From assembly GCF_000022265.1 (NCBI RefSeq), contig NC_011979.1:1920001-1952000 (forward strand): a stretch of DNA of 32,000 nt, written 5' to 3'. The DNA is from Geotalea daltonii FRC-32 (GTDB taxonomy: Bacteria; Desulfobacterota; Desulfuromonadia; Geobacterales; Geobacteraceae). The notes under the pieces were generated by a model that searched no databases, was not told the DNA's origin, and was given only the letters and a program-made list of their open reading frames with translations. The position numbers and the translations under genes were made by a program. Positions 1-31,832 of this stretch are shown in pieces (the first letter of the stretch is position 1; each line of letters begins with the position of its first letter).

Positions 1-2722
1 GGGTATAGGCAATGCTGTTTTCAACGACCTCTTCCTCAAAAGCAACGCTCCGTGGCTGACCGAGCTTGTTGAAGAGTTCGGTGCCGGTACGGAGATCACC
101 CTTGTAGGCCTTGATGGTCGGGATGAATACCGCCGGCCTCTGCATCATGGTTGAGGCGGTTGCAGGGATGATGCTGGGGGCCGGTGTCCAGGTGGCGTCG
201 GCGGGGATGGCGGTGCCGGTCATGTTGAAGCCCCCGTCAAAGAAGTTTTGGGAGGTTGCATGACAGTCGCTGCAGCCGTAGACGGTAACCTTGCCGGAGG
301 CATCGAAGGCGCGGGGCTTACCCAGCGCATACTGGGCGACGCCCTTGACCCCATGGGTCACCTGGTAAAGGCCGCCGATGTAATCAAGCCGGGTGCCTTC
401 CCAGGATCTACCCGATTGACCGGGCTTATCTTTGATGCTGGTTCGGTAGGTCTTATAGTCCCTGATTTCGTCAGGGGTGGTGAAGATGGCGTTGCCGCCG
501 TAGACCCCGACATACTTCCAGGCGCCGGTGAATGAGCCGTCGGCGTTGTAGGCGCTCTGGTACTTTCCGCCGGTTACACCATCACCTGCATTGCCGAAAC
601 CGACCGGAATAGGAGCAAAACCTCCGGGGGCAAAATTAATCCCGGCCTTCAGGTCGCGCTGGATCCACGGGTCGAAAATGGGCTCGCCAAAGCCCTGTGT
701 GGAATTGGCATCACCAACGGTCAGAATCTGTCCGTTGACACCGTCACCGTTAGCGTCAACGGCGGTGTTTTCATCGTTGTTGAACAGTGCCGAAACAATG
801 GTGTTGGTCAGGTAAATCTTGCGCCTGAAATTGGGGCTGGTCTTGAGACCATTGCCGACCTTGGACCAGGTTCTAAGCGGCAGCCATTCCTGGAGCGCGC
901 CGCCGATCACGTGGGTACCTGTCGGGATCTCGGCCTGGAAGCCGGGACCGGGCTGGCCGGTAGCCGTGCAGATGGTGCCGGGACCGCTCGATGAAGTGTA
1001 GCCGCAGTTGGTATTGATCATGGAATTCATGAAGTTGTACTGCTGTCTTGCCCCTTCGTTTGCAGCTTCAGTGGCAGGATCTTCGAACATGCCCATCATG
1101 CCTTTGCTGTAATCGAAGCCGACCATGGTCGGGTAGCGGTTGCCGCTGGTGCAATCCAGGGCGCGAACAGCCATGCTCTTCTTCTGTACGTGGCAGACGG
1201 TGCAGTCGATGACGTCCAGATGGCTGCCCGGAATGAATTTCTGTCCACCGCTGCCGTCGGGGCCCATGGCCCTGGCGATCATGGCGGTCAGACCCGCTTT
1301 CTGATGTGCTGCTGTGGCATCCGGCGCATTAAGGTTGTCAACGCTGTTGCCGTCCGGATTGGTGCCGGTAACATGGCAGCTTTCACACCGTTTGACGGTG
1401 TTGCGTGTATCGATCTTGGTTCCTATCTGTGAACCGTCCTCAATGGTGCCGGAACCGTCGAAACCACGCCCCGGGTCGCATTGATTCTTGTCGGAATTGG
1501 AGCTGTTGGTGTCCATGTGGCAACCGGCGCAGCCGAACTGGGTGTGGACATCCTGACCGGCCTGCCATGCGTCCCCACGCTTGAACCAGTCTGCCCGCGG
1601 GAAGGGAACGACCGATTTCTTCAGGACGTTCTGGTTCTGTTGCCCGGGGTAATCTGCCGTGAGTCCGATATCGGTAACGGGGGCCTCATAGAAGATGGGG
1701 CCGCTGCCACCCTGGTTGTCGCCGCCGAAGGAGGTCATGCCGTTGACGGTCGTTCTGTTGTAGACGGTGGAACCCTGGGCGGCAAGCAGCCCTTTCACCA
1801 TGTAGCTGTACAGATTGGTGGCGTCAACGAGCGGAGATTTGACGGTATTGGGCAGCCATGGCGAATTGAAGTCATAAGCGGGCATGATCAGGCCGGTTGG
1901 CCCTACCATCGGATTATTCGCGTTGGTATTGAGGATCATTGGCGCCGAGGAGAGGAAGCCGTTCATCATGTCGGGCAGATCCTTCATATTGTTCGGGCTG
2001 TGGCACTGCTGGCAGTTGGCGCTGGGAGGCAGGCGCTTGATGTTATCCACCACCGACTGCTTCAGGCTGACCGTCTGCATGCCATTGGCATCTTTGGGAC
2101 CCAGATCGACCATGGCGGCATTGTAGCCACCCTGTGTCTGACTGCCGGGCATGAGGTCCATGAGGCCCGCCCCGGCCATGGGTGCTGCATTGAGAATGCC
2201 CATCTGGGCAAAGACAGAGCTCATTACGTTGTTGTAGCCCTGGAAGTGGCAGAAGAGACAATCCATTTCCCGCACGTTGGGCATCATCAGCTGGCCGTTC
2301 TGGATATACGGCTCGCCATCTGCTGTTCCACCCTGGTTCATGGCAACACTGCCCCATCCATTGGGCGCGATCATCGCATTTGCACCACCCAGTGCCGGTG
2401 ATTTGCTATCAGTCGTGGCGGGATAGCTCCACGGTGCGCGGATAACGCTGCTGGTAGGGGCCCCTGATTTGGGATCCCAGGATTCATATACGGTGTTCAG
2501 ATACGGGTTAATGGTTTGGTCACCCAGCCCCCGTTGCGCGAGGCGAAGGCCATTGCGGTCTTTTTCCACCAAGCCGCCCCCAACGTGACAACTGCCACAG
2601 TTGGTGGCCATGTCCCAGACGGAGAGGTCCACTTTTGTAAATTTGCTGCCTGGTGTTGTATCGCCATACAAAAATAGATCAGAATTAGGGTAGGTCAGAT
2701 CTTTACCATCAGTTTGCCGCAT
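1..2722 (-). CDS. Large multihaem c-type cytochrome body. It is partial because its 3' end lies beyond the left edge. It has 7 CXXCH motifs, no signal peptide of its own, and is in frame with CDS 2753..3217.
   Basis: The minus-strand frame stays open from ATG 2720-2722 to base 1. It is absent from the ORF track because its stop is outside the window. Seven CXXCH motifs were read directly in that single frame: CGSCH (His codon 2585-2587), CLFCH (2246-2248), CQQCH (2000-2002), CAGCH (1517-1519), CESCH (1373-1375), CTVCH (1190-1192) and CSDCH (260-262). The N-terminus MRQTDGKDLTYPNSD has no hydrophobic leader. The + strand ORFs here are antisense shadows. Confidence 0.85.
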   Translation of the reverse strand, partial: MRQTDGKDLTYPNSDLFLYGDTTPGSKFTKVDLSVWDMATNCGSCHVGGGLVEKDRNGLRLAQRGLGDQTINPYLNTVYESWDPKSGAPTSSVIRAPWSYPATTDSKSPALGGANAMIAPNGWGSVAMNQGGTADGEPYIQNGQLMMPNVREMDCLFCHFQGYNNVMSSVFAQMGILNAAPMAGAGLMDLMPGSQTQGGYNAAMVDLGPKDANGMQTVSLKQSVVDNIKRLPPSANCQQCHSPNNMKDLPDMMNGFLSSAPMILNTNANNPMVGPTGLIMPAYDFNSPWLPNTVKSPLVDATNLYSYMVKGLLAAQGSTVYNRTTVNGMTSFGGDNQGGSGPIFYEAPVTDIGLTADYPGQQNQNVLKKSVVPFPRADWFKRGDAWQAGQDVHTQFGCAGCHMDTNSSNSDKNQCDPGRGFDGSGTIEDGSQIGTKIDTRNTVKRCESCHVTGTNPDGNSVDNLNAPDATAAHQKAGLTAMIARAMGPDGSGGQKFIPGSHLDVIDCTVCHVQKKSMAVRALDCTSGNRYPTMVGFDYSKGMMGMFEDPATEAANEGARQQYNFMNSMINTNCGYTSSSGPGTICTATGQPGPGFQAEIPTGTHVIGGALQEWLPLRTWSKVGNGLKTSPNFRRKIYLTNTIVSALFNNDENTAVDANGDGVNGQILTVGDANSTQGFGEPIFDPWIQRDLKAGINFAPGGFAPIPVGFGNAGDGVTGGKYQSAYNADGSFTGAWKYVGVYGGNAIFTTPDEIRDYKTYRTSIKDKPGQSGRSWEGTRLDYIGGLYQVTHGVKGVAQYALGKPRAFDASGKVTVYGCSDCHATSQNFFDGGFNMTGTAIPADATWTPAPSIIPATASTMMQRPAVFIPTIKAYKGDLRTGTELFNKLGQPRSVAFEEEVVENSIAYT

Positions 2723-2726
2723 TAAA

Positions 2727-2742
2727 TTCGCCACCTGGCGAA
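2727..2742 (-). other. SECIS-like RNA hairpin downstream of the in-frame UGA
   Basis: The mRNA reads UGA-AGCCCCUCUC-UUCGCC-AGGU-GGCGAA. This is a perfect 6-bp stem with a 4-nt loop containing GGU. The stem starts 11 nt after the UGA. No bulged U is present. Confidence 0.3.
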
Positions 2743-2752
2743 GAGAGGGGCT

Positions 2753-3217
2753 TCACCACTTACCCCACATGGCCTTGGTCTGGTTCCATGGCTTCTGCCG
2801 GTTGACGGTGGTATCGAAGCCGCCGGTGGGAGAATCATTCCATTCATTGGCGCCTAAGGCTGAATGGAAAGCATGGTCGGCCAGGGCTTCATAGCTCTTC
2901 AATATTTTACCAGACGACGGGGCGACCGTCGTGCCGTTGTGGCAGGATCCGCATGTGGCCTTGGGACTGTAAGGAAAGCCCTGCATCGGGTTCTGGGGAT
3001 TGCCACCGACCATGACCGGCATGGGGCCTGCGGGTACCTTATTGCCCTTTGCATCTACTGAAAATGGTACGCCATACTGTACTGCCACTTCGTCATAAGT
3101 CTTCAGCTCAATAGGTGGATGAGCTGCGAGACCTGTGCCCATGGAGAGCCACAGGCCGGTGAATGTGACACCGACCGCGGCCACCAGTGGCAGAGAGCCT
3201 TTAATTCGCTTCTTCAT
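2753..3217 (-). CDS. Exported monohaem cytochrome c module, probably the N-terminal part of the downstream multihaem cytochrome
   Basis: This is ORF 2753..3307 with the start moved to ATG 3215-3217. The N-terminus MKKRIKGSLPLVAAVGVTFTGLWLSMGTGLAA is a Sec-type signal peptide, and a GGAAGG RBS precedes it. There is one CXXCH (ATCGSCHNG). The ORF ends at TGA 2753-2755, which is in the same reading frame as CDS 1..2722. Confidence 0.7.
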   Translation of the reverse strand: MKKRIKGSLPLVAAVGVTFTGLWLSMGTGLAAHPPIELKTYDEVAVQYGVPFSVDAKGNKVPAGPMPVMVGGNPQNPMQGFPYSPKATCGSCHNGTTVAPSSGKILKSYEALADHAFHSALGANEWNDSPTGGFDTTVNRQKPWNQTKAMWGKW

Positions 3218-3549
3218 GTTACCTTCCTTTCTTTTTGTCTGTTTCGCAATCTCTATGAAGATTGCATCTCTGCTTCCCTGATTGTCCGGCATTGGGGGAT
3301 GCCGCACCCGGGGAGAGCTACCCTTTTAAAGGCCAAACGGTATATTGCTGAAAGCGCGCTTATTAGATTGCATTATGTATACCTTTATTTAGATAAAACT
3401 ATATTGATGGACAATCGGTTCCAGGAGCTGTTGTACCGTATTATGTGGTTGTCTGAATGGTGAGGAACGATTGGGTCACATGACTCAACCGGGGGTGCAG
3501 TTGGGTGATGTGACCCATGTTTGGGGAGGGGGAACTGATGCTTTAGGAA

Positions 3550-4632
3550 CTAGTTTCCGGCAATTTCCTTGCGGTGGCCGAAGCCGTAGATACTGATCTT
3601 TCTCGGACCGGACTGATTAGTAACCAGAATAAGCTGCTCCACCTCGAAGGAAGGATCGGCAAAGGTCCTGAAGTATTCAAGATTTTCCCGGGTGATGGCG
3701 ATATCGGCGGGGATGCTTAGAGTCCCCTCTTTAGAGCCTCTTTCACCGAAGAACATCAGCAGCTGTCCGTCAGGATCAAAAATCTGCACCACCTGATTGC
3801 CGGCGTCCACCACGTAGATCAGCCCTGCATCGTCCACTGCGATACCTTTTGGTCTGCTGAACTGCCCGGGGCGGTCCCCAAGTGCACCGAAGGCCTTCAA
3901 CACCTTGCCATTTGGATCCATTTTGATGATTCGACAGGTGCCCAGGTTGGTAACATAGATATTCCCTTCCTTGTCCAGTGCCATATTAGTCGGCAAGGAA
4001 AGGGTCTCACCTTCTTTGCTGTCCCTGCCGACTGCACGGGTCTGCTCGCCGGTTTGCAGGTCAAATATCTTGATCTCACTGCTGTTGTAGTCTACTACGT
4101 ACAGTTCTTTTCCCCTGATGGCCGCATCAGTTGGCTTCATATCGCCGATTGAGAACGTGCCAGTGGGATTATCGTCATTGAAACGAATTACCTTCTTGCT
4201 CCCTGTATCTGCAACAAAGGCATTGCCCTCATCATCGAAGGAGATGTTGATGGGAGATTTCAGTACCTCAGTGTCCAACTGGTGGAAGGTCTTTTCATTG
4301 AGATCTATGGTGGTGATTCGACCCAAGGGTACATCAGATATAAAGATTTTACTCCCCCTGACCGCGATGCCGTAGGGTTTGGCGATCACTTCATTAACGC
4401 CTGGCGTGTCTGCAAAAATCGATGATTTGATATCATTGATTGAAGAGATGCTGGTCAGATATTGAACATGCGACGCATCGGGAGCAGGCGGGAAGAAAAC
4501 CGGGGCTTTAACCTGTTTGGGTGCAAAACAACCGGGAAGGTAGATTAAAAGACAAAGAAAAAAAAGGATGTGCCGATACCTGAGGGTGGAGTTTGTGGAG
4601 CTGTGGATCTGCATTCTCGTCTCCGGATACAT
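3550..4632 (-). CDS. NHL-repeat beta-propeller lipoprotein
   Basis: The 360-aa ORF has a hydrophobic leader ending in the lipobox LPGC. It carries repeated NHL-type blades (PYGIAV..IFISD, GNAFVADTGSKKV, GKELYVVDYNS, GNIYVTNLGTCRI, PKGIAVDDAGLIYVVDAGNQVV). Confidence 0.8.
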   Translation of the reverse strand: MYPETRMQIHSSTNSTLRYRHILFFLCLLIYLPGCFAPKQVKAPVFFPPAPDASHVQYLTSISSINDIKSSIFADTPGVNEVIAKPYGIAVRGSKIFISDVPLGRITTIDLNEKTFHQLDTEVLKSPINISFDDEGNAFVADTGSKKVIRFNDDNPTGTFSIGDMKPTDAAIRGKELYVVDYNSSEIKIFDLQTGEQTRAVGRDSKEGETLSLPTNMALDKEGNIYVTNLGTCRIIKMDPNGKVLKAFGALGDRPGQFSRPKGIAVDDAGLIYVVDAGNQVVQIFDPDGQLLMFFGERGSKEGTLSIPADIAITRENLEYFRTFADPSFEVEQLILVTNQSGPRKISIYGFGHRKEIAGN

Positions 4633-4706: not shown

Positions 4707-5501
4707 TTACTTGTCGTGGCAGGTCAGGCAGAGTTTTGATCCATCCATTTTAACCCGCAGCAGTGGTTTGGCTGCCGTCCTGGCTGCAGTGTTATGGACG
4801 TCGTGGCAAGAGGCGCAGGTGAGTTTATCTGCCTTGTAGAGCAGTTCTTCTATCTTTGTGCACTTCCTGTCCGCGGCGGGGACCCACCCTATATCCACAT
4901 TGGCCGGCCGGATAAAAGAATCATTGGCTGCAACCTGCTTGTAGCTGAAGCCGATAGGGTGGTCGTTCATGAGATTGCCGCCACTTTCTCCGGAGTGGCC
5001 GTCACCGAGAGGAGCCAGTACTACCTCTGGTGCCGTAGGGGTGAACGAGCCGATCTTGCCGGCGTAGGAGTCGATGGCGGTGGTACCGTCGTGGCAGCTC
5101 ATGCAGAGACGGGATGGCCCGTCCATCATGTCGGCGGGATCGATTACCGCTTGCAGGGAGAGGGCTTTATCCAGATACGTCGGATCCGCCATGTAGTCTT
5201 CTTTGAGAAGGCCGTTGTAAGGAAGGAAATTTTGCGTGACCGGGTTCCTGTTCCACAGCGGGTTGTAACCGGTTTCACCGGTCGATCTGGCGCTGTGCGG
5301 CGTGTGGCAGAACTTGCACACCTGCTGATTCGGGTCGCCCGAGGTTGTTCCGCCGGAGGCGATGGGGAGATAGAGGTTCATGTTGTGGGGGGAGGTGGCC
5401 ACACCCGTCCCTTCGGTATAGTTGACCAGTCCGGCGTAAGCGAACGTTGCGCTTGCGACGACAAGTAGGGCGGCTATACCTGCTCTGATTTTTAGGTTCA
5501 T
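4707..5501 (-). CDS. Exported tetrahaem c-type cytochrome (small OmcE/OmcS-class outer-surface type)
   Basis: The 264-aa ORF has the signal peptide MNLKIRAGIAALLVVASATFAYA. It carries four CXXCH motifs (CKFCH, CMSCH, CASCH, CLTCH). It also has SPHN and CxxCHxPH/CxxCHDVH contexts typical of Geobacter-type cytochromes. Confidence 0.9.
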   Translation of the reverse strand: MNLKIRAGIAALLVVASATFAYAGLVNYTEGTGVATSPHNMNLYLPIASGGTTSGDPNQQVCKFCHTPHSARSTGETGYNPLWNRNPVTQNFLPYNGLLKEDYMADPTYLDKALSLQAVIDPADMMDGPSRLCMSCHDGTTAIDSYAGKIGSFTPTAPEVVLAPLGDGHSGESGGNLMNDHPIGFSYKQVAANDSFIRPANVDIGWVPAADRKCTKIEELLYKADKLTCASCHDVHNTAARTAAKPLLRVKMDGSKLCLTCHDK

Positions 5502-5696: not shown

Positions 5697-7133
5697 TCAG
5701 GTAGCAGCAGCTCCCGTTCTTTTTCTTTCGCCCCGGAGACCGAATTTTTTCATACGGTAGCGCAGGGTGTCGCGGCTGATGCAAAGATATTTTGCCGCTT
5801 TGGTCTGATTTCCTCCGGCAATCTCCAATCCTTGACGGATCATTCGCCGTTCCAGCTCCACAATGGAGACGCCGACGGTCTCAGATACACCACCAAAGCG
5901 AGTCGAATTGCCCGGCTGGCCATGGTTGGCCGTAGGTTGCGGTTTCTGCTCGAAATTATGCTTTATTTCAATATTTAAAAATCGGGGTGAGATGGTTTTT
6001 TCCTGTTCCAACATCATGCTGCGCTCGATGGCATTGCGCAACTCGCGGACATTTCCCGGCCAGTCATAGGCGGTCAGGTACGCCAGGGCTTCTTCGGATA
6101 TGCCTTCCACCTTTTTTCCATATTCCTCATTCAGACGGCGGATGAAGTAGCCGACCAATAACGAAATATCCTCTTTTCGATCCCGCAGAGGGGGCAGGCA
6201 AATGCTCATGACGTTCAGACGGTAGAACAGGTCGCCTCTGAAGGTGCTGCTTTTGACCATTGCCTGCAGATTCTGGTGGGTGGCGGCAATGATGCGCACA
6301 TTGGCTTGAATGTCCTCTTCACTTCCCAGACGTCTAAAACGCTTGGTTTCGATGACCTTCAACACCTTGGACTGCATGGACAACGGCATGTCGCCGATTT
6401 CATCAAGAAAGACCGTTCCACCTTCGGCCAGCTCGAAAATTCCCTTTCGCCTTTTGCCGGCGTCGGTATAGGCTCCTTTCTCATGGCCGAACAGCTCACT
6501 TTCCAGAAGGTTTTCCGGGATAGCCGCGCAGTTTATTTCGGTAAAAGGAGCGTCTGCCCTGGCGCTGTGGTAATGGATTGCCCTTGCAACAAGCTCCTTG
6601 CCGGTGCCGCTTTCACCCAATAGCAGAATAGTTTTGGCATCTGTTTCGGAGCAGACCTTGATCATTTTGAAAAGATCTACCATGGCTTCGCTGGTTCCTA
6701 CCAGTTTGTCGTCTTCCGTTTTCTTGCGCAATTCCTGGTGAAAAAAATCGGCGGTCTCACCCAGATGCCGCTTTTCAAAGGTTCTGTTGATGACATGGAG
6801 AAAGACTTCCATGTTGAAAGGTTTGCCGATGAAGTCCTCAGCTCCCAGTTTCAGAGCTTTTACTGCCGAGTCGGCATCGGCGTTGGCCGTCATGACAATA
6901 ACGCTTATATCTTTCCTTTCGGATTCGATCCGGCTGAGCAGATCCAGGCCGCTGCCGTCGGGAAGCCAGAGGTCGAGCAGCACCACGCACGGCCTGAAGC
7001 TTTTCAATTTCTCTTTCGCCTCAGCAATTGAAGCAGCTGCATCTACAATGAAGCCTCTTCTGTTGAGCATAAAGGACAAGGAAAGAGAGATAAGTTTTTC
7101 ATCCTCTACGATCAATATCCTTTTTTCCCCCAT
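5697..7133 (-). CDS. Sigma54-dependent response regulator (NtrC/Fis family enhancer-binding protein)
   Basis: The protein has an N-terminal REC domain (ILIVEDE...VVLLDLWLPDGSG). Its AAA+ core has Walker A GESGTGKE, a GAFTGA-position loop reading GAYTDA, and FLDEIGDM. The C-terminus is a Fis-type HTH (NQTKAAKYLCISRDTLRYRMKKFG). Confidence 0.9.
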   Translation of the reverse strand: MGEKRILIVEDEKLISLSLSFMLNRRGFIVDAAASIAEAKEKLKSFRPCVVLLDLWLPDGSGLDLLSRIESERKDISVIVMTANADADSAVKALKLGAEDFIGKPFNMEVFLHVINRTFEKRHLGETADFFHQELRKKTEDDKLVGTSEAMVDLFKMIKVCSETDAKTILLLGESGTGKELVARAIHYHSARADAPFTEINCAAIPENLLESELFGHEKGAYTDAGKRRKGIFELAEGGTVFLDEIGDMPLSMQSKVLKVIETKRFRRLGSEEDIQANVRIIAATHQNLQAMVKSSTFRGDLFYRLNVMSICLPPLRDRKEDISLLVGYFIRRLNEEYGKKVEGISEEALAYLTAYDWPGNVRELRNAIERSMMLEQEKTISPRFLNIEIKHNFEQKPQPTANHGQPGNSTRFGGVSETVGVSIVELERRMIRQGLEIAGGNQTKAAKYLCISRDTLRYRMKKFGLRGERKRTGAAAT

Positions 7134-7297: not shown

Positions 7298-7525
7298 GAT
7301 CACTCGCATGCAGTATAGATATATTCAGGTTTAATGATAATTGGCGGATTAGAATTAAAAACAATTTCGGTAAAATAACGGGTGTTCTTCGTGGTTAGGC
7401 GAGGTTGTACTGCCGTCGTCAATATTTAAAAAAACGATAGATATAATCATTTTTTTCGATATTTCCAATTTGACTTTGCCCGAATGTGTTTGTTAGGGTG
7501 TCAGCGGTTTTCAGGAGGCACCGGG

Positions 7526-9949
7526 ATGAATTCTTCAATGGGCAAAATTCGGCCATCCTTGGCTAAGATGTTGGCAGAGGCAATGAATGGCTGCACCGGC
7601 TGCGGCGTCTGCGTTCGGGAATGCGCCTACCTGAAACTGTACGGCACTCCCCGTGACATTGCCGGCTCCTATGATCCGGTGGACTCCAAAAACAGCAGCA
7701 TCTGCTTTGAATGCAGTCTCTGTGGCCTTTGTACGGCTGTATGTCCGGAGGGAGTAGATCCGCAAAAACTATTTCTTGAGATGCGACGCGAGGCGGTGGA
7801 TCGAGGCAAAGGTTCATTTCCTGAACACAAGGGGCTCCTGGCATACGAGCGGACCGGCATGTCGCGGCGTTTCACCTGGTACGGCCTGCCCGAGGGGTGT
7901 ACGACCGTATTTTTCCCGGGTTGCGCTTTGCCGGGAACAAGGCCTGCTGCAACCATGGCGGTCTATGAAAAACTCAAGGAGTCGGTTCCTGCCCTTGGGC
8001 TGGTAATGGACTGCTGCGCAAAGCCTTCCCACGATTTGGGCCGGGAGCAGTTTTTTCAGCAGATGTTCAATGAAATGACCGATTGGTTTAAATCCCACGG
8101 CGTGCAGCGGGTCCTGGTTGCCTGTCCCAACTGTTACAAGGTCTTTTCCGACTATGCGCCCCAGTTTGAGACAAAGACCGTTTATGAACTGCTGGCCGAG
8201 ATCACCCCCGAAAGGATCAGCGATGCCCCTGCTGTGCCGGTGACCATCCATGACCCGTGCGTGATCCGCTTTGACGAAGCGCCGCAGGGGGCAGTGCGCA
8301 CGCTGATTGCAACAGCCGGCCACAGTATTGAAGAGATGCCGCATGCCAGAAAGACTGCCTTGTGCTGCGGTGAGGGGGGAACGGTCAGTCCGCTGGCCCC
8401 GGATCTGGCGGGCAGCTGGGGAGCGCTGCGTGTGGATGAAGCTGCCGGGAGGCGGCTTGTAACCTATTGTGCCGGATGCGCCAACCACCTGGGAAAGAAG
8501 CTGCCGGTAACCCATGTCCTGGATATGCTCTGCTACACTCCCAAGCCATCTTCGGGGCTGATTACCTATGTGAATCGACTGCGTCTCAAATCCCGATTCA
8601 AGGGTACCGTGCCCGCGGCGGTAACGAGGGAGCGGGTTAATCCCAACGCCTCCCGAAGCGGAAAGCTCCGGCCTCTTTTGTTCCTGGCTGCCCTGGCGGC
8701 GGTAATTATCCTGGTCCGGGTGGGTGGGGCAAGCCAATATCTGGAGCCGGAAAAACTGCGGACATTGTTTGCCGGCTTCGGGGTGGTCGCACCACTCGTC
8801 TACATCGCCTGCTACATCGTCGCTCCTGCACTGATGTTCCCCGGCCTGCCCCTCAGTATTGCCGGGGCTACGGTATTCGGGCCATTCTGGGGTGTCGTCT
8901 ATACGATCATCGGCGCCACCTTGGGCGCCTGCGCTGCATTCCTCATCGCCCGTTACGCCGCGCGGGACTGGGTAGAGCGCCGTCTGGTCGGCTCCCGCTG
9001 GAACAAACTGGACGACGAAACCGGGAAGAACGGCTGGAAAGCGGTGGCGGTTACCCGGCTGATTCCGTTGTTCCCCTTCAACCTACTCAATTTTGCCTTC
9101 GGTCTCACCCAAATATCCTTCCTCCAATATGCCGTGGCGACCTTTATCTTCATGCTGCCCGGCACCATTGCCTATATTACCTTTTCCAGTTCATTGCTCG
9201 GGGTATTGAAGGGGAGGGTGTCGCGGGAGTTTTTCATCGGCATTGGTTTGCTGGTGGCGGTCTCGCTGATTCCCAAGGTCGCTGCATGGTACAAAGGTCG
9301 ATCTCTTCAGGCGCCTCGGCCGGCGGTGCCCTGGAACCTGCGGAGAAGCCTGCAAAGAAAGGCGGCCGTTCTTGCCGTGCTCTGTTTATTGTCTGCCGGT
9401 ACGTACACCCTGATCCGGAAATTTTTCTGGGCGCTGGACGCCTATCTGTACACCATCGAGTTCAACCTGCTCTTTGTGGCAAGCCGTTTACAGGATGCAG
9501 AGCTTGCCCGCTTTGTAGAATACCTCGTGCCCATGTCCGGGATGCGGGCCGCAGGAATTGCGCTGGCTTGTCAGGCCATGGCGGCATTTGCTTTCCCGTT
9601 CTCGTCGTTAAGGACCGACGTGGCCTTTACTTCGGCATTCGGCACATGGACCGGCATGGCTTATTTTGCCGGAGCTGACCTGCTGGTGACCGGAGTTGCC
9701 GCTTCGATCGGCAGGTTTATCCTGGGGGACCTGTTGCCGATGTACTACCGGCGCAAGGGAAAGGATACACTGTCTCCGGCGCCCATCTGGATAGGGTGGG
9801 CTGCGGCGGCACTTTTGGCCGTTCCCGGTATTCCGTTAGTGCTGGGCGCTTTGGTCGTCGGCGGATTTCGTCTACATCCCGGCCGCTCGCTTGCAGTCAT
9901 GGCGGCCGGGGTTGCCGTAAGAGCACTGGCTCTGCTGCTGACAAGATAG
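7526..9949 (+). CDS. Fusion protein: HdrD/GlpC-like Fe-S oxidoreductase (2x[4Fe-4S] plus 2 CCG domains) fused to tandem DedA/TVP38 (VTT) membrane domains
   Basis: The start is set at ATG 7526, behind an AGGAGG RBS; the ORF track starts at 7484. Ferredoxin motifs are CTGCGVCVRECAY and CFECSLCGLCTAVCPEG. CCG-type motifs are FFPGCALPG..DCCAKP..CPNCYK and DPCVIRF..LCCGEGG..YCAGCANH. About 430 aa of multi-pass membrane sequence follow, with the TVP38/DedA signature (FPGLPLSIAGATVFGPFWGVVYTIIGATLGACAAFLIARY..RLIPLFPFNLLNFAFG). A second, degenerate copy follows (FPFSSLRTDVAFTSAFGTWTGMAYFAGADLLVTGVAASIGRF). Confidence 0.75.
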   Translation: MNSSMGKIRPSLAKMLAEAMNGCTGCGVCVRECAYLKLYGTPRDIAGSYDPVDSKNSSICFECSLCGLCTAVCPEGVDPQKLFLEMRREAVDRGKGSFPEHKGLLAYERTGMSRRFTWYGLPEGCTTVFFPGCALPGTRPAATMAVYEKLKESVPALGLVMDCCAKPSHDLGREQFFQQMFNEMTDWFKSHGVQRVLVACPNCYKVFSDYAPQFETKTVYELLAEITPERISDAPAVPVTIHDPCVIRFDEAPQGAVRTLIATAGHSIEEMPHARKTALCCGEGGTVSPLAPDLAGSWGALRVDEAAGRRLVTYCAGCANHLGKKLPVTHVLDMLCYTPKPSSGLITYVNRLRLKSRFKGTVPAAVTRERVNPNASRSGKLRPLLFLAALAAVIILVRVGGASQYLEPEKLRTLFAGFGVVAPLVYIACYIVAPALMFPGLPLSIAGATVFGPFWGVVYTIIGATLGACAAFLIARYAARDWVERRLVGSRWNKLDDETGKNGWKAVAVTRLIPLFPFNLLNFAFGLTQISFLQYAVATFIFMLPGTIAYITFSSSLLGVLKGRVSREFFIGIGLLVAVSLIPKVAAWYKGRSLQAPRPAVPWNLRRSLQRKAAVLAVLCLLSAGTYTLIRKFFWALDAYLYTIEFNLLFVASRLQDAELARFVEYLVPMSGMRAAGIALACQAMAAFAFPFSSLRTDVAFTSAFGTWTGMAYFAGADLLVTGVAASIGRFILGDLLPMYYRRKGKDTLSPAPIWIGWAAAALLAVPGIPLVLGALVVGGFRLHPGRSLAVMAAGVAVRALALLLTR

Positions 9950-15082: not shown

Positions 15083-15356
15083 ACGTTACCATCTTGTCGC
15101 GCCGACAGTCAATCCTGCTCGTTTAAGAAAAAAATAATGATAATCACGGTTGACAGGGAAGAGGGCTTCGTGTTATTTGAAATCTACTTTCAGTTTTAAA
15201 AAAGGTGGGCTGGGGAAGTGTATGTGCTGTTGTATAGTGCAATGGCAACTGTGTATAGATTTATTTAAATCGAGAAAATGAAAATCACAATCAGTGGTCG
15301 AAGGAGGGTTAACGTTGCCACGCGTGAAATGTAATCAAAACAAAAGGAGAAAAGAG

Positions 15357-16604
15357 ATGAAAAAATCATTTGTACTTATGGCTGCAGTAACCATACTGGG
15401 CAGCATGGCATCCATGGCCCGCGCGGCAACAGTTGAAGAACTGCAGCAGCAGGTTGATGAATTACGTAACCAGGTGAAGGCGATCAAGGCGCCGGCTCCT
15501 TCAGCGGAGAGTGGAGGGGACGGGTATGCGAAGAAAGTCTGGGATAATACCCGCTTTGGTGGATACGGCGAGCTGGATTACATCGTGACACGTGAAAACG
15601 GCAACGGCAAAGGGAGCAATGCCTTCGATCCGCATCGCTTCGTCCTGTATGTAAATTCCGACCTGAGCGACTGGATCACCTTGAATACCGAACTGGAATG
15701 GGAGCACGGCGGCGTCGGTGGTGACGTGAAGGACGGAAAAAAACTTTCGGGAGAGGTCTTGGTGGAGCAAGCTTTTCTCCAGTTCAAGCTGTCGCGTCCC
15801 CTCAATCTCAAAGCAGGTATCATGCTCGTTCCTCTAGGTGCGACTAATCTCTACCATGAGCCGACAAACTTCAATTCCAGCGAAAGGCCACAGCTGGACC
15901 GTTATCTGATTCCCTCAACCTGGTCTGAGATGGGAGCAGGGATCTATGGCTCTCTGGGGACCAAGGTAGATTACGAGTTGCTGGTGATGAACGGATTGGA
16001 CGGCGCAGGCTTTTCGGCCAAGGACGGCGTCCGTGGCGGCAGGCAGAACCTGAATGCCGACGTAAACAGGAACAAGGCTGTTGCCGGCAGGTTGGAAGTA
16101 CGTCCCTTCACCAACCTCTACACCAACTTCTCCTTTTACACCGCCAATTCAGCCAAGGTAGGCACTGCATACACCACCATCGCAGCCTTTGACGGCAAAT
16201 ACAGCATTGGCGATCTTGACTTGGCAGGAGAATATGTGCATGTCTACCAGGACGATCCTCGCGCATTGGGGGTAACGGATATCGGCCACAACATGTCCGG
16301 CTATTGGGTCGAGGGTGCCTACCATGTCCTGCCGAAGAGCCTGAAGAAGGGTAAGCTGTCGGAGGCCGATGCCCTGATCTTTGCCCGCTATTCTGAATTC
16401 GATACCCAGCAGGGTTCAATAGGTGATCCGAGCAAGGCCAGCGGCAAATACGACCGAAACTACACCAATTTCGGCATCGTCTTCAAACCGACGACAACCT
16501 TATCGGTGAAGGCCGATTACCAGGTTTACGACGACCATCGCAAAGCCGGAGAGAAAGCACTTGATAACGACAAGTTCCAGGTGACGCTTGGTTTCGTGTT
16601 CTGA
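15357..16604 (+). CDS. Outer-membrane porin, phosphate-selective porin O/P-like
   Basis: The start is ATG 15357, behind AAGGAGA. The signal peptide is MKKSFVLMAAVTILGSMASMARA. An N-terminal coiled-coil segment follows, then alternating beta-strand sequence ending in the C-terminal barrel signature TLGFVF. Confidence 0.75.
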   Translation: MKKSFVLMAAVTILGSMASMARAATVEELQQQVDELRNQVKAIKAPAPSAESGGDGYAKKVWDNTRFGGYGELDYIVTRENGNGKGSNAFDPHRFVLYVNSDLSDWITLNTELEWEHGGVGGDVKDGKKLSGEVLVEQAFLQFKLSRPLNLKAGIMLVPLGATNLYHEPTNFNSSERPQLDRYLIPSTWSEMGAGIYGSLGTKVDYELLVMNGLDGAGFSAKDGVRGGRQNLNADVNRNKAVAGRLEVRPFTNLYTNFSFYTANSAKVGTAYTTIAAFDGKYSIGDLDLAGEYVHVYQDDPRALGVTDIGHNMSGYWVEGAYHVLPKSLKKGKLSEADALIFARYSEFDTQQGSIGDPSKASGKYDRNYTNFGIVFKPTTTLSVKADYQVYDDHRKAGEKALDNDKFQVTLGFVF

Positions 16605-17748: not shown

Positions 17749-20103
17749 TCAGCGCATTGTAGCAAAGGTTACGCCGTTGCCCCCCTCATGCTGATCGCCG
17801 ACGCGGTATTCCCTTACCAGCGGATGACCGTCCAGATGCTCACGCACCCCTTTCATCAATGCACCGGTGCCTGTGCCGTGGATTATCTTCACTTCTCCCA
17901 GTCCTGCGGTCGAAGCCCTGTTGAGGAATGTCTCCAGTTGTGAAAGGGCTTCGTCCACCCTCAATCCCAACAGCCTGAGCTCGTGAGAGGTCTCGGGCTC
18001 CTCGATGGCCTTTCGCCGTGATGGTTCTTCCTTCATCTTCACCCCGCGCTTTAATGCCACATCACCGGCAGATACTTCCACCTCCCTATGCCCTACCTTC
18101 AGTCTTAACCGCTGCTGTTTTTCGTCAATGCGGGCAATGGTGGCGTCAAAGCCAAGGGATCTGACAAAAACAGTGTCTCCCACCGAGAGTTCCTGCAAGG
18201 CAGGGGATACATCTTCCTGGTATTCCCGGAGTTTCTTTTCCAGCTCCCCCCCCATTTTCTCCAGTTTTTTCAGGGAATCCCCGGACTTTTCCCGGCGTGC
18301 CTTGTCAAGGATGGCCCTTGTCTCGCGTTTGACCGTGGTGACCACATCCCTGGCTTCGGCAAAGGCTTTGCCCATTGCCTGCCGTTTTGCTTCTTCAGCC
18401 TGGGCCAGACGCATGGAAAGAAGGCGTTCCCGCTCGGCAGCCCTCTGTTCCCGCGCATCCAGGTCCGCTATCAATTCCGAGTATCGCTGTCGTTTTTCCT
18501 TGAGCTCTGCCAGCAGGGCATGAAAATCGGCCTCTCTCGTGCCGATCATCCTTTCGGCAAAGTCGATGACTTTTGCAGGCATACCATAGCGCCTGGCGAT
18601 GTCGATGGCGTGGGATTGTCCCGGCTCGCCGCTCTGCAACCGGTAAAGGGGGGTCAGGTTAGCATGGTCGAATTCCATGGAGGCGTTGGTCATGCCGGGG
18701 GTCCGATGGACAAAGGCCACTATGTCGGTCAGGTGAGTCGTGGCAATGACAAGGGCTCCCTTTTCCTGCAGCTCTTTAAGAACGCCGCAGGATATGGCGG
18801 CCCCCTGTCCGGGCTCGGTGCCGGTTCCCAATTCATCCAGGAGCACAATACTTAGTTTACCAGTTTTGTGGAGGATTTCAGCCATATTTGCCACATGGGC
18901 TGAGAAGGTGGACAGGCTGCTTTCAATGGATTGGTCATCCCCCATGTCCACGAGCAGGTTGTCGGCCAGGGGAATGGACGAAGAAGGAGCCGCCGGGATC
19001 GGTATCCCGGAGAGCCCCATGGCCAGAAGAAGTCCCACAGTCTTGATGGCGATGGTTTTTCCCCCGGCGTTGGGGCCGGTGATGACCATTATACTGTCGT
19101 CTGCCGGTGGTGTGCCGAGGCGGATATTGAGCGGTACCGGTTCGTGGCCGTTGCCCCTGTCGCGCATAAGCATCAACAGCGGGTGGCGCGCCCCATTCAG
19201 TTCGATTTCACCGCCATCGTTGATAAAGGGTGCATTTGCTCCGAGCTGATCGGCAAACCGGGCTATGCTGTTGAGGGTATCAAGTCGGACGAGGGTCTGG
19301 AATTCCACGTTTATGTCATCGGCGGCAATACGAATCTCCTGGCAGATGGCCCGGATGATGCGGATTTCCTCCCCCTTTATCTCTGCCCCCAGGTTTTCCA
19401 GCTCATTGGCTAGGCTTATGATCTCCAGTGGCTCCATGAAGGCTGTTTCACCGGTATTTGAAACATCGTGGACAACCCCTGCCACCATTCCTTTTGAATC
19501 CATGCGCACTGGAATGACCCATCTCCCCCCTCGCTGGGTTACGAACTCGTCCTGAAGGAAGAGAGCTATCTTCGGCTCGCGGATGATCTCCTCCAGCCGT
19601 TTTCTGATCCGCGCCGTCAGGCTCCTTTTTTTGCCACGCAAATCCTGGAGCAGTGGCGAAGCCGAGTCAAGGATATTGCCCTCGAAATCCAGGGTCGTTT
19701 CCAGTCGATCGAGGAGGTGTGGAAAACCGGTGAGATTTCCCGCCAGGTCCTTGATGAGAGGTATATCGTTGCGATAGGCAAGCTGTTTAGCCAGGGAAGA
19801 GAGCACCTGAAAAAAGGGGGTGAGGATGGCAAGGTCGTGGTGGTCGAGCACTGCCCCTTCCGGGCGCACTGCTTCCAGGAGCGGTGTTATATCCTCAAAG
19901 GTCGATAGCCGCAGGGGTACCCTTACCTGAGCCAGCCTTCTGATTTCTTCAATCTGGCCGAACTGTGTTTCAAGCCTTTCCCTTATATGGAAAGGGAGGA
20001 TTTCCGAGATGAATTTTCGGGAGGGGGCACTATTGGCGAAACCGGCAATGAAGGAAAGAATTTTTTCGAATTCAAGGAGGTGCAGGGAATCCTTTTTTAT
20101 CAT
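17749..20103 (-). CDS. mutS2: Endonuclease MutS2 (MutS-family ATPase with a C-terminal Smr domain)
   Basis: The 784-aa protein has Walker A ITGPNAGGKT, the MutS block STFSAHV, LLDELGTGTEP and THL. A coiled-coil linker is followed by a C-terminal Smr domain (LRLLGLRVDEAL..IIHGTGTGAL). Confidence 0.9.
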   Translation of the reverse strand: MIKKDSLHLLEFEKILSFIAGFANSAPSRKFISEILPFHIRERLETQFGQIEEIRRLAQVRVPLRLSTFEDITPLLEAVRPEGAVLDHHDLAILTPFFQVLSSLAKQLAYRNDIPLIKDLAGNLTGFPHLLDRLETTLDFEGNILDSASPLLQDLRGKKRSLTARIRKRLEEIIREPKIALFLQDEFVTQRGGRWVIPVRMDSKGMVAGVVHDVSNTGETAFMEPLEIISLANELENLGAEIKGEEIRIIRAICQEIRIAADDINVEFQTLVRLDTLNSIARFADQLGANAPFINDGGEIELNGARHPLLMLMRDRGNGHEPVPLNIRLGTPPADDSIMVITGPNAGGKTIAIKTVGLLLAMGLSGIPIPAAPSSSIPLADNLLVDMGDDQSIESSLSTFSAHVANMAEILHKTGKLSIVLLDELGTGTEPGQGAAISCGVLKELQEKGALVIATTHLTDIVAFVHRTPGMTNASMEFDHANLTPLYRLQSGEPGQSHAIDIARRYGMPAKVIDFAERMIGTREADFHALLAELKEKRQRYSELIADLDAREQRAAERERLLSMRLAQAEEAKRQAMGKAFAEARDVVTTVKRETRAILDKARREKSGDSLKKLEKMGGELEKKLREYQEDVSPALQELSVGDTVFVRSLGFDATIARIDEKQQRLRLKVGHREVEVSAGDVALKRGVKMKEEPSRRKAIEEPETSHELRLLGLRVDEALSQLETFLNRASTAGLGEVKIIHGTGTGALMKGVREHLDGHPLVREYRVGDQHEGGNGVTFATMR

Positions 20104-22706
20104 CGATTCTCCGAGAGACGGTGCAAAACCGGTATTTTACCTATTGCCGCTTCCCTGCCGGCTTTGTCCGTACCCAGCTTTATCATGCCGGTCATGAAGC
20201 CGATCAGCTCCAGAAATTGCACCGCATCCGCGATGACCCCGGGGAGTTGGGCCGCAGAGGCCGGCTGGTTATCAGTGTTATAGACAAGTATCTTGTTGTT
20301 TTCAGTTAGAACGATGGCCACATAAACGTAGCATTCTTCCCCACGTTTCATGGCACAGATGTAGCCTTTACAACTCTGACTCGGATTCCCTTCCAACGCT
20401 ACCCGTGCCAGGTTTGAGGATTCATGCAATTCAATGATCTCTTCTTGGGAGGAATATTCAATGCTGTGAAGTGCAGGATCGCAGGTGAAGGTACTGCCGC
20501 TGCCCCCTGTTGAAGAGTTGTTGCTGAAAAAGGTGCCATCATCGTTGTCGGGAAATGCAAATGGATCACTGCCGGCTTCCACGGGCGGTCCGCCGTAATC
20601 GATGGGGTCAGAAGCGGTCATGGCAGCTCTTTTCCATGCCCCTACCGAAGAAACGGATACATTGAGTTCCCCTTCGGAGGCCATCTTGCGCCCGGAAGAT
20701 TTGTCCTGGTGCCTTTTTTTCTCCTCCTGGACGCCAGGGGCCGACGCTGAGCCAGCATTTTCCGATTGGAGGCTGAGTCGTTCTTCCTCAGCTTTCAATC
20801 TTAAAGCCATCAGACGATCTGTTTCTGCTTTCAGGCGGGATGCTTCCTCTGCTGCAGCTTTCCATTCCGCTTCGGCCTTTGTCTTTTCCTCACGCAGTCG
20901 CTCGATCTCTGCCTTATGCAGGCTGATATCTACTGCAGAGGAATGATCTTCCTTCTTTCGATCTTCCTGTACATCCGCAGACCTGTCCACCTTTCCGCCA
21001 GGGGGAGTGGGAGGTTCAGTAACTGCTTCTATGGTTTCTTCACGGCGAGCATCAGAAGCTGTCAATGGGGTGTCTGCAGCCTGATAAGCTGCTTGTTCCG
21101 CAAAGATTTTTTTCTCGAGGATTTTTTCGATCATTATCCTCTCTGCTTCAGCGGCTTCAAGTGCGCTTCTCAGTTCTGCGGTTTTTGCTGACAGCAGCTC
21201 TTCAGCAGCAGCCTTTTCAGCCGCCGCAGCTTTTGCCTCATTTTTTGCACTTATGCACCGTCCCGTTGCACGCTCTTCGAACTGGCCGATGATGTCTACG
21301 GTTTCTTCAGCAGCGATCCTGTCCTCATTGGTCTTTCTTACAGTGCGTCTTACCTCCTCCGCCTGCTCCTCTGCAATCTTTTCTTCCTCGTTTTTCTGCA
21401 GGAACAGCTGTTCTGCTTCCATACGCGCTGCAGTGGCGGCTGCCAGGGTGTCCTGTGCTGCAAGGGCTCTTTTTTCAGCCAGCTTCTCCGCTTCCAGCAG
21501 TTTCACCAATCTTTCTTCTGCAGCAAGTCTCTCCGCCCGGGCTTTTTCAGCAGCCTCTTTTTCTTCCAAAATGGTGTCTGCGGCATTTTTTTCAGCTTCC
21601 GACAGAGCTGAAATCCGTTCTTCAGCAGCCAGTTTTTCAGCTTCAAGCTTTTCCTTGATCTGCCGGGCGATTTCCGCCTTTTCCGCCACCATCTTTTCAG
21701 CTTCCTGCCGCTCTTCGGTGGCCAGTTCGGCGAGACGTCGGTTTTCTTCAGTTTTTATTCTCGCCGCTTCCTCGGCAGCCTTCCGCTCCTCTTCGGCCTT
21801 GACCCTCGCCGCTTCCTCGGCAGCCTTCCGCTCCTCTTCGGCCTTGATCCTCGCCGCTTCCTCGGCAGCCTTCCGCTCCTCTTCGGCCTTGATCCTCGCC
21901 GCTTCCTCGGCAGCCTTCCGCTCCTCTTCGGCCTTGATCCTCGCCGCTTCCTCGGCGGCCTTCCGTTCCTCCTCGGCCTTGACCCTCGCCGCTTCCTCGG
22001 CGGCCTTCCGTTCCTCCTCGGCCTTGACCCTCGCCGCTTCTTCGGCAGCCTTCCGCTCCTCCTCGGCCTTGACCCTCGCCGCTTCCTCGGCAGCCTTCCG
22101 CTCCTCTTCAGCCTTGACCCTCGCCGCTTCCTCAGCAGCCTTCCGCTCCTCTTCAGCCTTGATCCTTGCTGCCTCTTCAGCAGCTTTGCGCTCTTTATCT
22201 GCCTTAGCCTTTGCTGCTTCTTCAGCTTTTTTTCGCGCTGAGTCTTCCTCGACACGGCGCGTTTCTCCGTCTTCTATAGCTGCTGTTTTTTCTGTGGCTG
22301 CCTGTTTTCTGGCAGCCAACCTTGCGGCGCTTACCGGCCGGATAACGCGGATGCCGCGCAGCACAACTTCCCTCAAGGCAACACTGTAATTCAGGTCAAC
22401 ATGCTCCATTTCGAAGCCCATGTCCTTTAAAAATTCCAGGGCTTCCTCCAGCAGCAGTTCAGGTCCCGCCAGGATGGCTGCCTCACCTGCAGCAATGTAG
22501 ACAAGAGCTTTTTTGCTGTTGCGGGTGGCGAGTGCAACGTAGACCTGCAGTGCTTCACCTTCTTTAATTGAACAGATGAATGCTTCGTATAGCTGCTTGG
22601 GAAGGCCGTTTGGAGTGATAGCAACGGCAGATCGCGATTTATAAATGTCTGTAATGTCCGATTCTGCTGCTTCTATGCAGTCAACCGATTCTTTCAAAGT
22701 GAACAT
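20100..22706 (-). CDS. Cytoplasmic 868-aa protein of unknown function: duplicated terminal globular domains joined by a long E/K/R/A-rich helical repeat region
   Basis: A GGAG RBS precedes ATG 22706. There is no signal peptide. The N-terminal segment AFICSIKEGEALQVYVALATRNSKKALVY..ALEFLKDMGF is matched near the C-terminus by GYICAMKRGEECYVYVAIVLTENNKILVY..AVQFLELIGF. About 600 aa of charged helical sequence lie between them, including 11 x 15-aa AEEAAR(V/I)KAEEERKA repeats. Stop TGA 20100-20102 overlaps the mutS2 ATG 20101-20103. Confidence 0.85.
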   Translation of the reverse strand: MFTLKESVDCIEAAESDITDIYKSRSAVAITPNGLPKQLYEAFICSIKEGEALQVYVALATRNSKKALVYIAAGEAAILAGPELLLEEALEFLKDMGFEMEHVDLNYSVALREVVLRGIRVIRPVSAARLAARKQAATEKTAAIEDGETRRVEEDSARKKAEEAAKAKADKERKAAEEAARIKAEEERKAAEEAARVKAEEERKAAEEAARVKAEEERKAAEEAARVKAEEERKAAEEAARVKAEEERKAAEEAARIKAEEERKAAEEAARIKAEEERKAAEEAARIKAEEERKAAEEAARVKAEEERKAAEEAARIKTEENRRLAELATEERQEAEKMVAEKAEIARQIKEKLEAEKLAAEERISALSEAEKNAADTILEEKEAAEKARAERLAAEERLVKLLEAEKLAEKRALAAQDTLAAATAARMEAEQLFLQKNEEEKIAEEQAEEVRRTVRKTNEDRIAAEETVDIIGQFEERATGRCISAKNEAKAAAAEKAAAEELLSAKTAELRSALEAAEAERIMIEKILEKKIFAEQAAYQAADTPLTASDARREETIEAVTEPPTPPGGKVDRSADVQEDRKKEDHSSAVDISLHKAEIERLREEKTKAEAEWKAAAEEASRLKAETDRLMALRLKAEEERLSLQSENAGSASAPGVQEEKKRHQDKSSGRKMASEGELNVSVSSVGAWKRAAMTASDPIDYGGPPVEAGSDPFAFPDNDDGTFFSNNSSTGGSGSTFTCDPALHSIEYSSQEEIIELHESSNLARVALEGNPSQSCKGYICAMKRGEECYVYVAIVLTENNKILVYNTDNQPASAAQLPGVIADAVQFLELIGFMTGMIKLGTDKAGREAAIGKIPVLHRLSENR
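21716..22255 (-). repeat. In-frame 45-bp tandem repeat array: 9 near-identical units at 21761-22165, plus degenerate flanking units
   Basis: The unit is tcgccgcttcctcggcagccttccgctcctcttcggccttga(c/t)cc. Units 21806-21850, 21851-21895 and 21896-21940 are identical to each other. Units 21941-21985 and 21986-22030 are identical to each other. The units encode AEEAAR(V/I)KAEEERKA. Confidence 0.95.
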
Positions 22707-31030: not shown

Positions 31031-31199
31031 GCAAAGCAGTGGTGCTGGCGCGACTACAAGCAAATTCTGGCAAAATTCCACGTTACGCTGTATGTTAACG
31101 TTGTAGTTAAGCCGCATCCGGGCTTCGGTCAGCCATGGATGACCTGGAGAGGCTGAAGGGAATGCTGCTCTAAAAACCAAAAAGATCACGGAAATTGAT

Positions 31200-31832
31200 A
31201 TGACCCAATCCTTCATCCACATCGAATCCCCCAATTACCTGAAAGCCGAAACCCTGGCCAGCCCGGCCGACTGGTCGGCCATCTTCGGCAACGATCGGCC
31301 GCTGGCCCTGGAAATAGGCTGCGGCATCGGCGATTTTATTGTGAAAACCGCCATGGATATGCCGGAAACCAATTTCATCGCCATCGATTATTACAATAAG
31401 GGGTGTTACAAGACCTGCCGCCGCATTGATCTCCACTGGCTGAACAATGTGCGGGTTCTGCGGGAAGAGGCACGGCAGTTTATCGTCGAGCGCATCGCCA
31501 AGGGCTCTTTGTCGGCTGTCTACATCAACTGCCCAGACCCGTGGCCGAAGAAGAAGCACCGTAAACGACGGCTGGTGAACCCCCAGTTCATGGACTTCCT
31601 CCGGGACTACCTGGCTCCTGGGGCAGATTTCTATTTTGCCACTGATTTCGACGACTACGGTATTGACGTGGCGGGGATGCTTCCCGGCGTGGAGGGATTC
31701 GAGAACTGTCTTGCCCCGGACCTTTACCGGCATGAGTTGGAGGGATATCATCTCTCCAAGTACATGCTCAAGTTCATGGGGGAGGGGAAGCGGATCTACT
31801 TCGTGCACTATGGGAAATCAGGTGCCCTTTGA
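31200..31832 (+). CDS. trmB: tRNA (guanine-N7)-methyltransferase
   Basis: [10 protein letters not shown] is the SAM motif, and [16 protein letters not shown] is the TrmB signature. Confidence 0.85.

Follow-up and report, generated by a model that had tools for sequence, protein, structure and literature searches.

A probable selenocysteine-containing octahaem cytochrome, annotated as two genes, in Geotalea daltonii FRC-32 and related bacteria

Introduction

MccSep (ExtKL, GSU2937-2936) of Geobacter sulfurreducens is a pentahaem, selenocysteine (Sec)-containing polysulfide reductase (PMC13510729; PDB 9wt8), which was predicted in 2007, characterised in 2026 and presented in the latter year as the first enzyme joining Sec with a haem centre (PMC13510729). 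Read-through of its UGA codon into Sec has been demonstrated by mass spectrometry, and Sec325 works beside a His/Cys239-ligated haem (PMC13510729). A 2026 inventory of 119 prokaryotic selenoprotein families includes only three that are haem-related, namely ExtKL (NF040886), GSU2204 (NF041027) and the Sec-containing octahaem members of the octahaem tetrathionate reductase (OTR) family (TIGR04315); Sec-containing OTR-family members are listed in a 2026 selenoproteome review (PMC13188914). The literature outside subscription journals yielded only the same three families (MccSep/ExtKL, GSU2204 and OTR) as Sec-containing haem proteins. Here, we examined a stretch of 32,000 nucleotides (nt) from Geotalea daltonii FRC-32 (contig NC_011979.1, positions 1,920,001 to 1,952,000), called the window below, whose own coordinates are used throughout. 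It contains, on the minus strand, a multihaem c-type cytochrome gene interrupted by one in-frame UGA, together with the gene cluster to which it belongs. The comparisons reported below indicate, with a probability that we put at about 0.9, that this UGA (codon 155) encodes Sec within a single secreted octahaem cytochrome. The full protein would be about 1,300 amino acids (aa) long and would have a signal peptide, eight haem sites and, at its C-terminus, a PKD domain.

A split reading frame with eight haem sites

According to the list of open reading frames (ORFs) and their translations, an ATG at 3217-3215 on the minus strand begins an ORF of 154 codons, which is ended by the TGA at 2755-2753. 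Judged by eye, this ORF starts with a signal peptide of typical form (MKKRIK, a hydrophobic stretch, then GLA followed by AHPP), and it contains one CXXCH motif (C89-H93, nt 2953-2939). A GTG-started version of 184 aa (2753..3307) is due only to the mechanical first-start rule of the ORF tool. In the same frame, the TGA is followed by 10 codons (SPSLRQVANL) and then by an ATG at 2722-2720, from which the translation reads MRQTDGKD. The frame after the TGA is free of further stops for 917 codons, up to window position 1, and carries seven CXXCH motifs, at Cys207, 320, 402, 563, 611, 672 and 982 in the numbering of the fused protein; no signal peptide was found in its translation. An earlier note on this DNA, made from its letters and ORF list, had described the ORF layout, the position of the TGA, the haem counts, the lone signal peptide and a hairpin after the TGA, and all of these details proved correct in translation and coordinates. 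The features of the gene are as follows.

2756..3217, minus strand: pre-Sec part, aa 1-154 (translation, alignments)
3217-~3122, minus strand: signal peptide, aa 1-~32 (by eye)
2953-2939, minus strand: haem-1 site CGSCH (translation)
2753..2755, minus strand: in-frame TGA, the predicted Sec codon U155 (TGA in 28/28 loci and in paralogues; Cys in fused homologues)
1..2752, minus strand: post-Sec part, aa 156-1072, cut by the window edge (translation, homologues)
2599-2585, minus strand: haem site at Cys207 (CXXCH)
2260-2246, minus strand: haem site at Cys320 (CXXCH)
2014-2000, minus strand: haem site at Cys402 (CXXCH)
1531-1517, minus strand: haem site at Cys563 (CXXCH)
1387-1373, minus strand: haem site at Cys611 (CXXCH)
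1204-1190, minus strand: haem site at Cys672 (CXXCH)
274-260, minus strand: haem site at Cys982 (CXXCH)
1478..1480, minus strand: Cys580 (QCDPGRG), outside the haem motifs (alignment)

The PKD domain and the stop codon of the gene lie beyond window position 1. A complete orthologue is available from Geotalea sp. SG265, which has 154 + 1 + 1,149 residues and the PKD domain at its C-terminus. All eight CXXCH motifs are conserved, and Pfam Cytochrome_C7 is matched at 1.4e-8. Several CXXCH motifs combined with an export signal, the latter judged by eye, identify the product as a multihaem c-type cytochrome. In the alignments, the pre-Sec part contains an invariant His118 and an invariant KPW...GKW run that extends up to the Sec codon, and the post-Sec part opens with an invariant xPSLRQ motif.

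The TGA column in homologous genes

A protein search with the fused sequence recovered 50 relatives, among which the homologues of the post-TGA part cover 81-85% of the query. Forty-seven of the 50 cover this part only and start at varied Met or Val codons just past the motif. The other three (P0005, P0014 and P0020) are full-length proteins with Cys at the TGA column, where they read GKWCPPSLRQ, GKWCNPSLRQ and GKWCVPSLRQ. Searches with the N-terminal part yielded 133 cluster representatives of 120-590 aa, every one of which (133/133) ends in ...GKW. When 1.84 billion representative proteins were searched exhaustively with a profile, 64 matches were obtained: 56 terminate at the TGA column (after GKW, GSW, GNW or GAW), four are fused with Cys, including an additional protein, P0217, with GGWCPSSARQ, and the remainder are contig-end fragments. 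The Cys-type homologues are all longer than 1,200 aa, and a further search directed at a shorter one recovered only more fragments truncated at the TGA.

At the DNA level, one genome per species was scanned. This found 29 loci, which belong to Geotalea, Geomonas, Geomesophilobacter, Oryzomonas, Malonomonas and Desulfuromonas, and 28 of them include the TGA region. In 28/28 loci, TGA occupies one and the same column, even where protein identity falls to 37%, and the stop codon at this column is always TGA, never TAA or TAG, both in these loci and in the paralogues. The flanks, KPWxQ....GKW before the codon and xPSLRQ after it, are invariant across the 28 loci and form the most conserved stretch of the protein. 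The earlier note had proposed one gene with a single UGA read as Sec with the aid of a hairpin, and every test on its list that was run here supported this proposal; at the column in question, homologues have either TGA (28/28 loci, with 133/133 fragments ending at GKW) or, in the four fused proteins, Cys.

The paralogous copies carry a UGA and a hairpin each, in the position known from the window; the sequence of the second, distant subfamily is NWVQSPGHVG[KS]W-UGA-PPSARQ[LM]AR. Two such split copies were observed a few kb apart in Geomonas ferrireducens, Geomonas paludis and Dissulfurirhabdus thermomarina (L034:15776, L035:3799 and L036:3866, with L034:9980, L035:9968 and L036:9968).

Some variation was noted elsewhere in the family. 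The spacing of the haem-1 motif differs among orthologues, the remaining haem motifs being strictly CXXCH: besides CGSCH (CX2CH) in the window, the forms CGTAGCH (CX4CH), CGSTKGCH (CX5CH), CTGGGNLACH (CX7CH) and CFGDQNGVACH (CX8CH) occur, with variable spacing seen in L003, L008, L010, L015, L027, P0005 and P0014. An extra N-terminal region of 300-450 aa is present in some orthologues (L009, L015, L017, L022 and L026; P0111, P0119, P0123 and others), which places the Sec codon 420-600 codons into the ORF, and the post-Sec part of these proteins is shorter, about 930-960 aa. The closest public genome is that of Geotalea toluenoxydans JCM 15764 (L005), to which the window DNA is 95-97% identical. 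Its copy has an in-frame stop 126 codons past the TGA and, when aligned with the window over 3.5 kb, 17 gap openings, which are probably indel errors of a draft assembly and not biology.

A hairpin that accompanies the UGA

In Escherichia coli fdhF, the Sec insertion sequence (SECIS) is a stem-loop located just after the UGA within the coding sequence, with a G/U-containing apical loop that is presumably shown to SelB. The corresponding element of the window is given below.

2727..2742, minus strand: putative minimal SECIS hairpin (5' arm 2742-2737 UUCGCC, loop 2736-2733 AGGU, 3' arm 2732-2727 GGCGAA)

Counted from the UGA, the stem of this hairpin begins after 11 nt and the loop after 16 nt. 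The whole structure, six base pairs and a 4-nt loop, lies inside the codons for L-R-Q-V-A-N. The loop is AGGU or AGUU in the family, and once AGAU. The earlier note had rightly remarked on the absence of a bulged U; the element is a minimal stem-loop and not a SECIS of the fdhF type. In folding, the hairpin stood out only mildly: alone (23 nt) it has -8.6 kcal/mol with z = -3.3, 3/200 shuffles being as good, whereas the 81-nt context is no more stable than its shuffles (z = +0.46). Such evidence from a single sequence is only suggestive; what decides the matter is the comparison of homologues.

In 20/20 distinct orthologue sequences all six pairs can form (100% of cells), and two pairs have changed on both sides. 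One of these is a compensatory exchange between U-A and C-G, in which Leu CUU to CUC accompanies Asn AAY to Asp GAY (12 vs 8 sequences); the other is an exchange between C-G and G-C, in which Arg CGC to CGG accompanies Ala GCG to Pro CCG. The paralogous subfamily adds a third compensatory pair, U-A to C-G, via Leu to Ala and Asn to Arg. When orthologues and paralogues are combined, 99.3% of cells are paired and 3/6 pairs covary, compared with 20-76% of cells for slid-partner controls. Pairing has been kept through amino-acid replacement, on one side in the first two pairs (Asn to Asp, Ala to Pro) and on both sides in the third. In addition, of 85 conserved four-fold-degenerate columns, only that of Ala163, which lies in the 3' arm, is without third-base variation; 26/26 sequences use GCG there, C being the usual third base elsewhere.

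Three Cys-type genes were examined; their codon at this column is TGC or TGT, and none has a corresponding hairpin. The Cys-type gene L032 encodes the same LRQVAN peptide as CUG CGC CAG GUC GCC AAC, which reaches -2.5 kcal/mol vs -8.5 to -11 kcal/mol in the TGA copies. Since Cys-type genes lack the hairpin even where, as in L032, the LRQVAN peptide is identical, the hairpin travels with the UGA and not with the peptide. These comparisons indicate that it is selected at the RNA level and behaves as a SECIS should. Seen by the earlier note in one sequence, the hairpin has turned out to be conserved in orthologues, with compensatory changes, and lost in Cys-type genes. Taken together, the alignments display the features by which a bacterial selenoprotein is recognised, that is, a conserved UGA column, Cys homologues and a downstream stem-loop with a G/U-containing apical loop, the latter both conserved and covarying.

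An alternative helix, GAAGC/GCUUC (2743-2757), was also considered; it appears in the 81-nt minimum free energy structure, with the UGA region paired with the 5' arm. It could sequester the UGA and compete with the 5' arm of the SECIS, and was seen in the window, L009, L011, L017 and L028. This helix was dropped as not conserved because it occurs only where the Ser codon following the UGA is AGC and the Ser codon two positions further on is UCG.

Alternative explanations and proposed decoding

The earlier note had also listed a recent nonsense mutation, which would make the gene a pseudogene, and a sequencing error. A single window could not by itself dispose of these or of an assembly error, and the closest draft genome, L005, has indels in the gene; both pseudogene and error are nevertheless excluded because the TGA is conserved across loci, being shared by 28 independent assemblies that represent at least six genera, by the paralogues and by >130 metagenomic clusters, and the remainder of the 1,072-codon frame is intact. 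A different view is suggested by the public annotations, all of which have a product of 120-170 aa, named 'hypothetical protein' or 'cytochrome C', and a 'PKD domain-containing protein', as if a 13-kDa secreted monohaem cytochrome and a large downstream ORF were two real genes translated separately. Some termination at the UGA probably does occur under scarce selenium. However, two independent genes are very unlikely, because the codons that precede any possible start are better conserved than the rest of the N-terminal region (xPSLRQ, between the TGA and any start, is invariant at the protein level), because no start is conserved (gene callers chose varied Met or Val codons past the motif), and because the body has no export signal, yet carries seven haem sites that need periplasmic maturation. 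Fused Cys-type proteins exist as well, and weak further evidence comes from structural modelling, in which the N-terminal fragment alone models poorly, with a predicted local distance difference test score (pLDDT) of 58 and a predicted template modelling score (pTM) of 0.31.

One gene could also be expressed without selenium, if the UGA were read by a near-cognate tRNA (Trp or Cys) or if the hairpin stimulated read-through, with a fused cytochrome as the product. The inserted residue cannot be told from sequence alone, a downstream hairpin can stimulate read-through in other systems, and no sel genes or tRNA-Sec were found in the 32-kb window, which would all agree with this possibility. On the other hand, the fused homologues carry specifically Cys, the usual counterpart of Sec; the stop has never become TAA or TAG in the 28 loci and the paralogues; the hairpin fits a bacterial SECIS both in where it lies and in having a G/U-containing tetraloop; and the lineage is known to use Sec and includes one proven Sec cytochrome. 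We consider read-through by another amino acid to have only a slight chance of being correct.

Several observations weigh against insertion of Sec at codon 155 and should be considered together. The support is sequence-based, and the 32-kb window has, as mentioned above, no sel genes (selA, selB, selC or selD) and no tRNA-Sec, a tRNA scan of it having given no match; Sec machinery is reported for G. uraniireducens and strain FRC-32, now placed in Geotalea (Fujita et al., PMC1914089). The hairpin is a minimal one of 6 bp that lacks a bulged U and whose loop follows the UGA by only 16 nt, and its 81-nt context did not exceed the shuffles. No relevant Rfam family was found in the whole window at the gathering threshold or in a permissive scan of 2650-2800; this null result carries no weight against a SECIS because no library entry matched such a short coding-region hairpin. 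Finally, the possible role of U155 that is considered below draws on conservation and ligand counting, and the AlphaFold2 model was built for the post-Sec body alone (pLDDT 76.7, pTM 0.80), with low confidence for the first 11 residues after Sec and for the Cys580 loop.

If codon 155 is indeed decoded as Sec, the hairpin would presumably recruit SelB-GTP-Sec-tRNA(Sec) at the UGA, as in established bacterial Sec decoding, and Sec would be inserted instead of termination; failed insertion would release a monohaem fragment of 154 aa. By analogy with the known maturation of c-type cytochromes, the N-terminal signal peptide would export the polypeptide, and the haems would be attached in the periplasm.

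Possible role of U155 and Cys580

U155 and Cys580 are the only conserved Cys/Sec residues outside the haem motifs. Cys580 is conserved in 26/28 full-length sequences and in the fused Cys-type proteins P0005, P0014 and P0020, and is a candidate Sec partner or haem ligand on the basis of this alignment. Conserved His residues outside the haem motifs number six (H33, H118, H558, H638, H666 and H955) for eight haems; therefore, at least two haems should have a non-His distal ligand or an open site. Open or non-His-ligated haems are found in catalytic multihaem enzymes. By analogy with MccSep, we propose that U155 may do chalcogen redox chemistry at a haem without a His distal ligand, possibly together with Cys580, as a functional counterpart of the Sec and the His/Cys-ligated haem of MccSep; this is a tentative assignment to which we would give somewhat less than even odds.

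A bolder and, in our estimate, rather unlikely extension is that the family represents a second, independently evolved selenium-haem enzyme class. In such an enzyme, a large secreted or surface octahaem protein, U155 would either bind a c-type haem directly as its axial ligand or act, paired with Cys580 at an open haem, as the nucleophile. The substrate, be it polysulfide, selenite or some other species of a chalcogen or metal, would be unlike that of MccSep. To our knowledge, no natural Se-ligated c-type haem has been described. If this idea were true, then with several Sec-bearing paralogues per genome the family could provide Geobacter-type sediments with a selenium sink and a redox activity that are both major and so far unrecognised.

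Gene neighbourhood

The following genes lie upstream of the cytochrome gene in the same cluster.

3550..4632, minus strand: NHL-repeat beta-propeller protein with a lipoprotein-like LPGC box (Pfam NHL, 6e-17)
4707..5501, minus strand: 264-aa four-CXXCH cytochrome of the paired-CXXCH type (Pfam, NCBIfam, synteny)
5697..7133, minus strand: sigma-54-dependent response regulator heading the cluster (Pfam; same position in Geotalea sp. SG265)

An NHL-repeat gene is also located upstream of the cytochrome gene in Geotalea and in several Geomonas loci. The conserved neighbours comprise the NHL-repeat protein, a paired-CXXCH cytochrome and two-component or sigma-54 regulators, with a SurA-like isomerase in Geomonas; they fit an envelope redox module and name no substrate. 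The 264-aa four-CXXCH cytochrome is a possible redox partner. An untranslated gap of 330 nt (3218-3549) separates the NHL-protein gene from the start codon of the cytochrome, and neither an Rfam match nor a sigma-54-type promoter match was found in it. In the window, the search for sigma-54 promoters (TGGCAC-N5-TTGC) gave 34 matches vs 38 expected, none of them in the relevant intergenic regions.

Divergent from the regulator of the cytochrome cluster and adjoining it, an 821-aa ORF (7484-9949, plus strand) encodes an HdrD/GlpC-like Fe-S and CCG-domain oxidoreductase fused to a VTT/DedA-type membrane domain; Geotalea sp. SG265 does not have it in the corresponding position. Three long ORFs without a Pfam match at 1e-5, of 868, 436 and 212 aa, were observed at 20100-22706 (minus strand), 15294-16604 (plus strand) and 31170-31808 (minus strand), respectively.

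Comparison with known systems and significance

More than 130 database clusters, including those of RefSeq Geotalea and Geomonas species and of Dissulfurirhabdus, carry this gene split in two. Because the split is systematic in annotation, both cytochromes and selenoproteins have been miscounted in these bacteria, which cycle metals and sulfur. The family is also a new target in the search for the terminal reductases of these organisms, and its hairpin is an unusually clean natural minimal SECIS, which could be useful for SECIS search models.

Membership in the known families of Sec-containing haem proteins was examined with hidden Markov models (HMMs) and by structural comparison. For the window protein and two Cys-type homologues, NF040886 (ExtKL), NF041027 (GSU2204) and TIGR04315 (OTR) gave no match at E<=10. 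Single-sequence and profile searches of PDB sequences, MccSep included, matched no cytochrome, and the profile search found only PKD domains. Foldseek against PDB gave no significant neighbour, in a library that ends in April 2026 and from which MccSep itself may be missing. Assignment to MccSep/ExtKL was rejected in view of the absent NF040886 match, the lack of similarity to PDB sequences and the different architecture. The OTR family was likewise rejected, with no HMM match and with a Foldseek comparison to 1sp3 of E = 4 and template modelling scores of 0.10/0.19, and so was the GSU2204 family, without a match at the same threshold. Within the searchable literature and NCBIfam, the family appears to be undescribed, and it is absent from the 2026 inventory of 119 families. 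What is already known is the recoding mechanism, which is standard, and the kind of protein, since Sec-containing multihaem cytochromes have been described.

With regard to the signal for recoding, the window hairpin resembles the fdhF SECIS in lying inside the coding sequence and in its G/U-containing loop, and differs from it in its size (6 bp and a 4-nt loop) and in lacking both the bulged U and a conserved lower stem. The Sec-containing OTR-family members are similar to the protein described here in being octahaem c-type cytochromes with a single Sec. The GSU2204 family shares with it a Geobacter-lineage origin, haem motifs and Sec; however, GSU2204 is listed as an outer-membrane beta-barrel of the MtrB/PioB type, whereas the window protein is a large soluble multihaem protein.

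The window protein resembles MccSep in kind. Both are periplasmic or secreted multihaem c-type cytochromes from the same bacterial order, both have a single in-frame UGA long annotated as a gene boundary, with a SECIS-like stem-loop within 30 nt downstream and rare Cys-type homologues, and both contain a conserved non-motif Cys as a possible partner of Sec. In contrast, the window protein has eight haems instead of five and about 1,300 aa instead of 450, and its Sec is placed between haem sites 1 and 2 (GKW-U-xPSLRQ), whereas that of MccSep is in a C-terminal immunoglobulin-like domain (D-G-U-P); the C-terminal domain of the window protein is PKD. A second, unrelated and larger family of Sec cytochromes, with adjacent paralogues, suggests that selenium-haem chemistry recurs.

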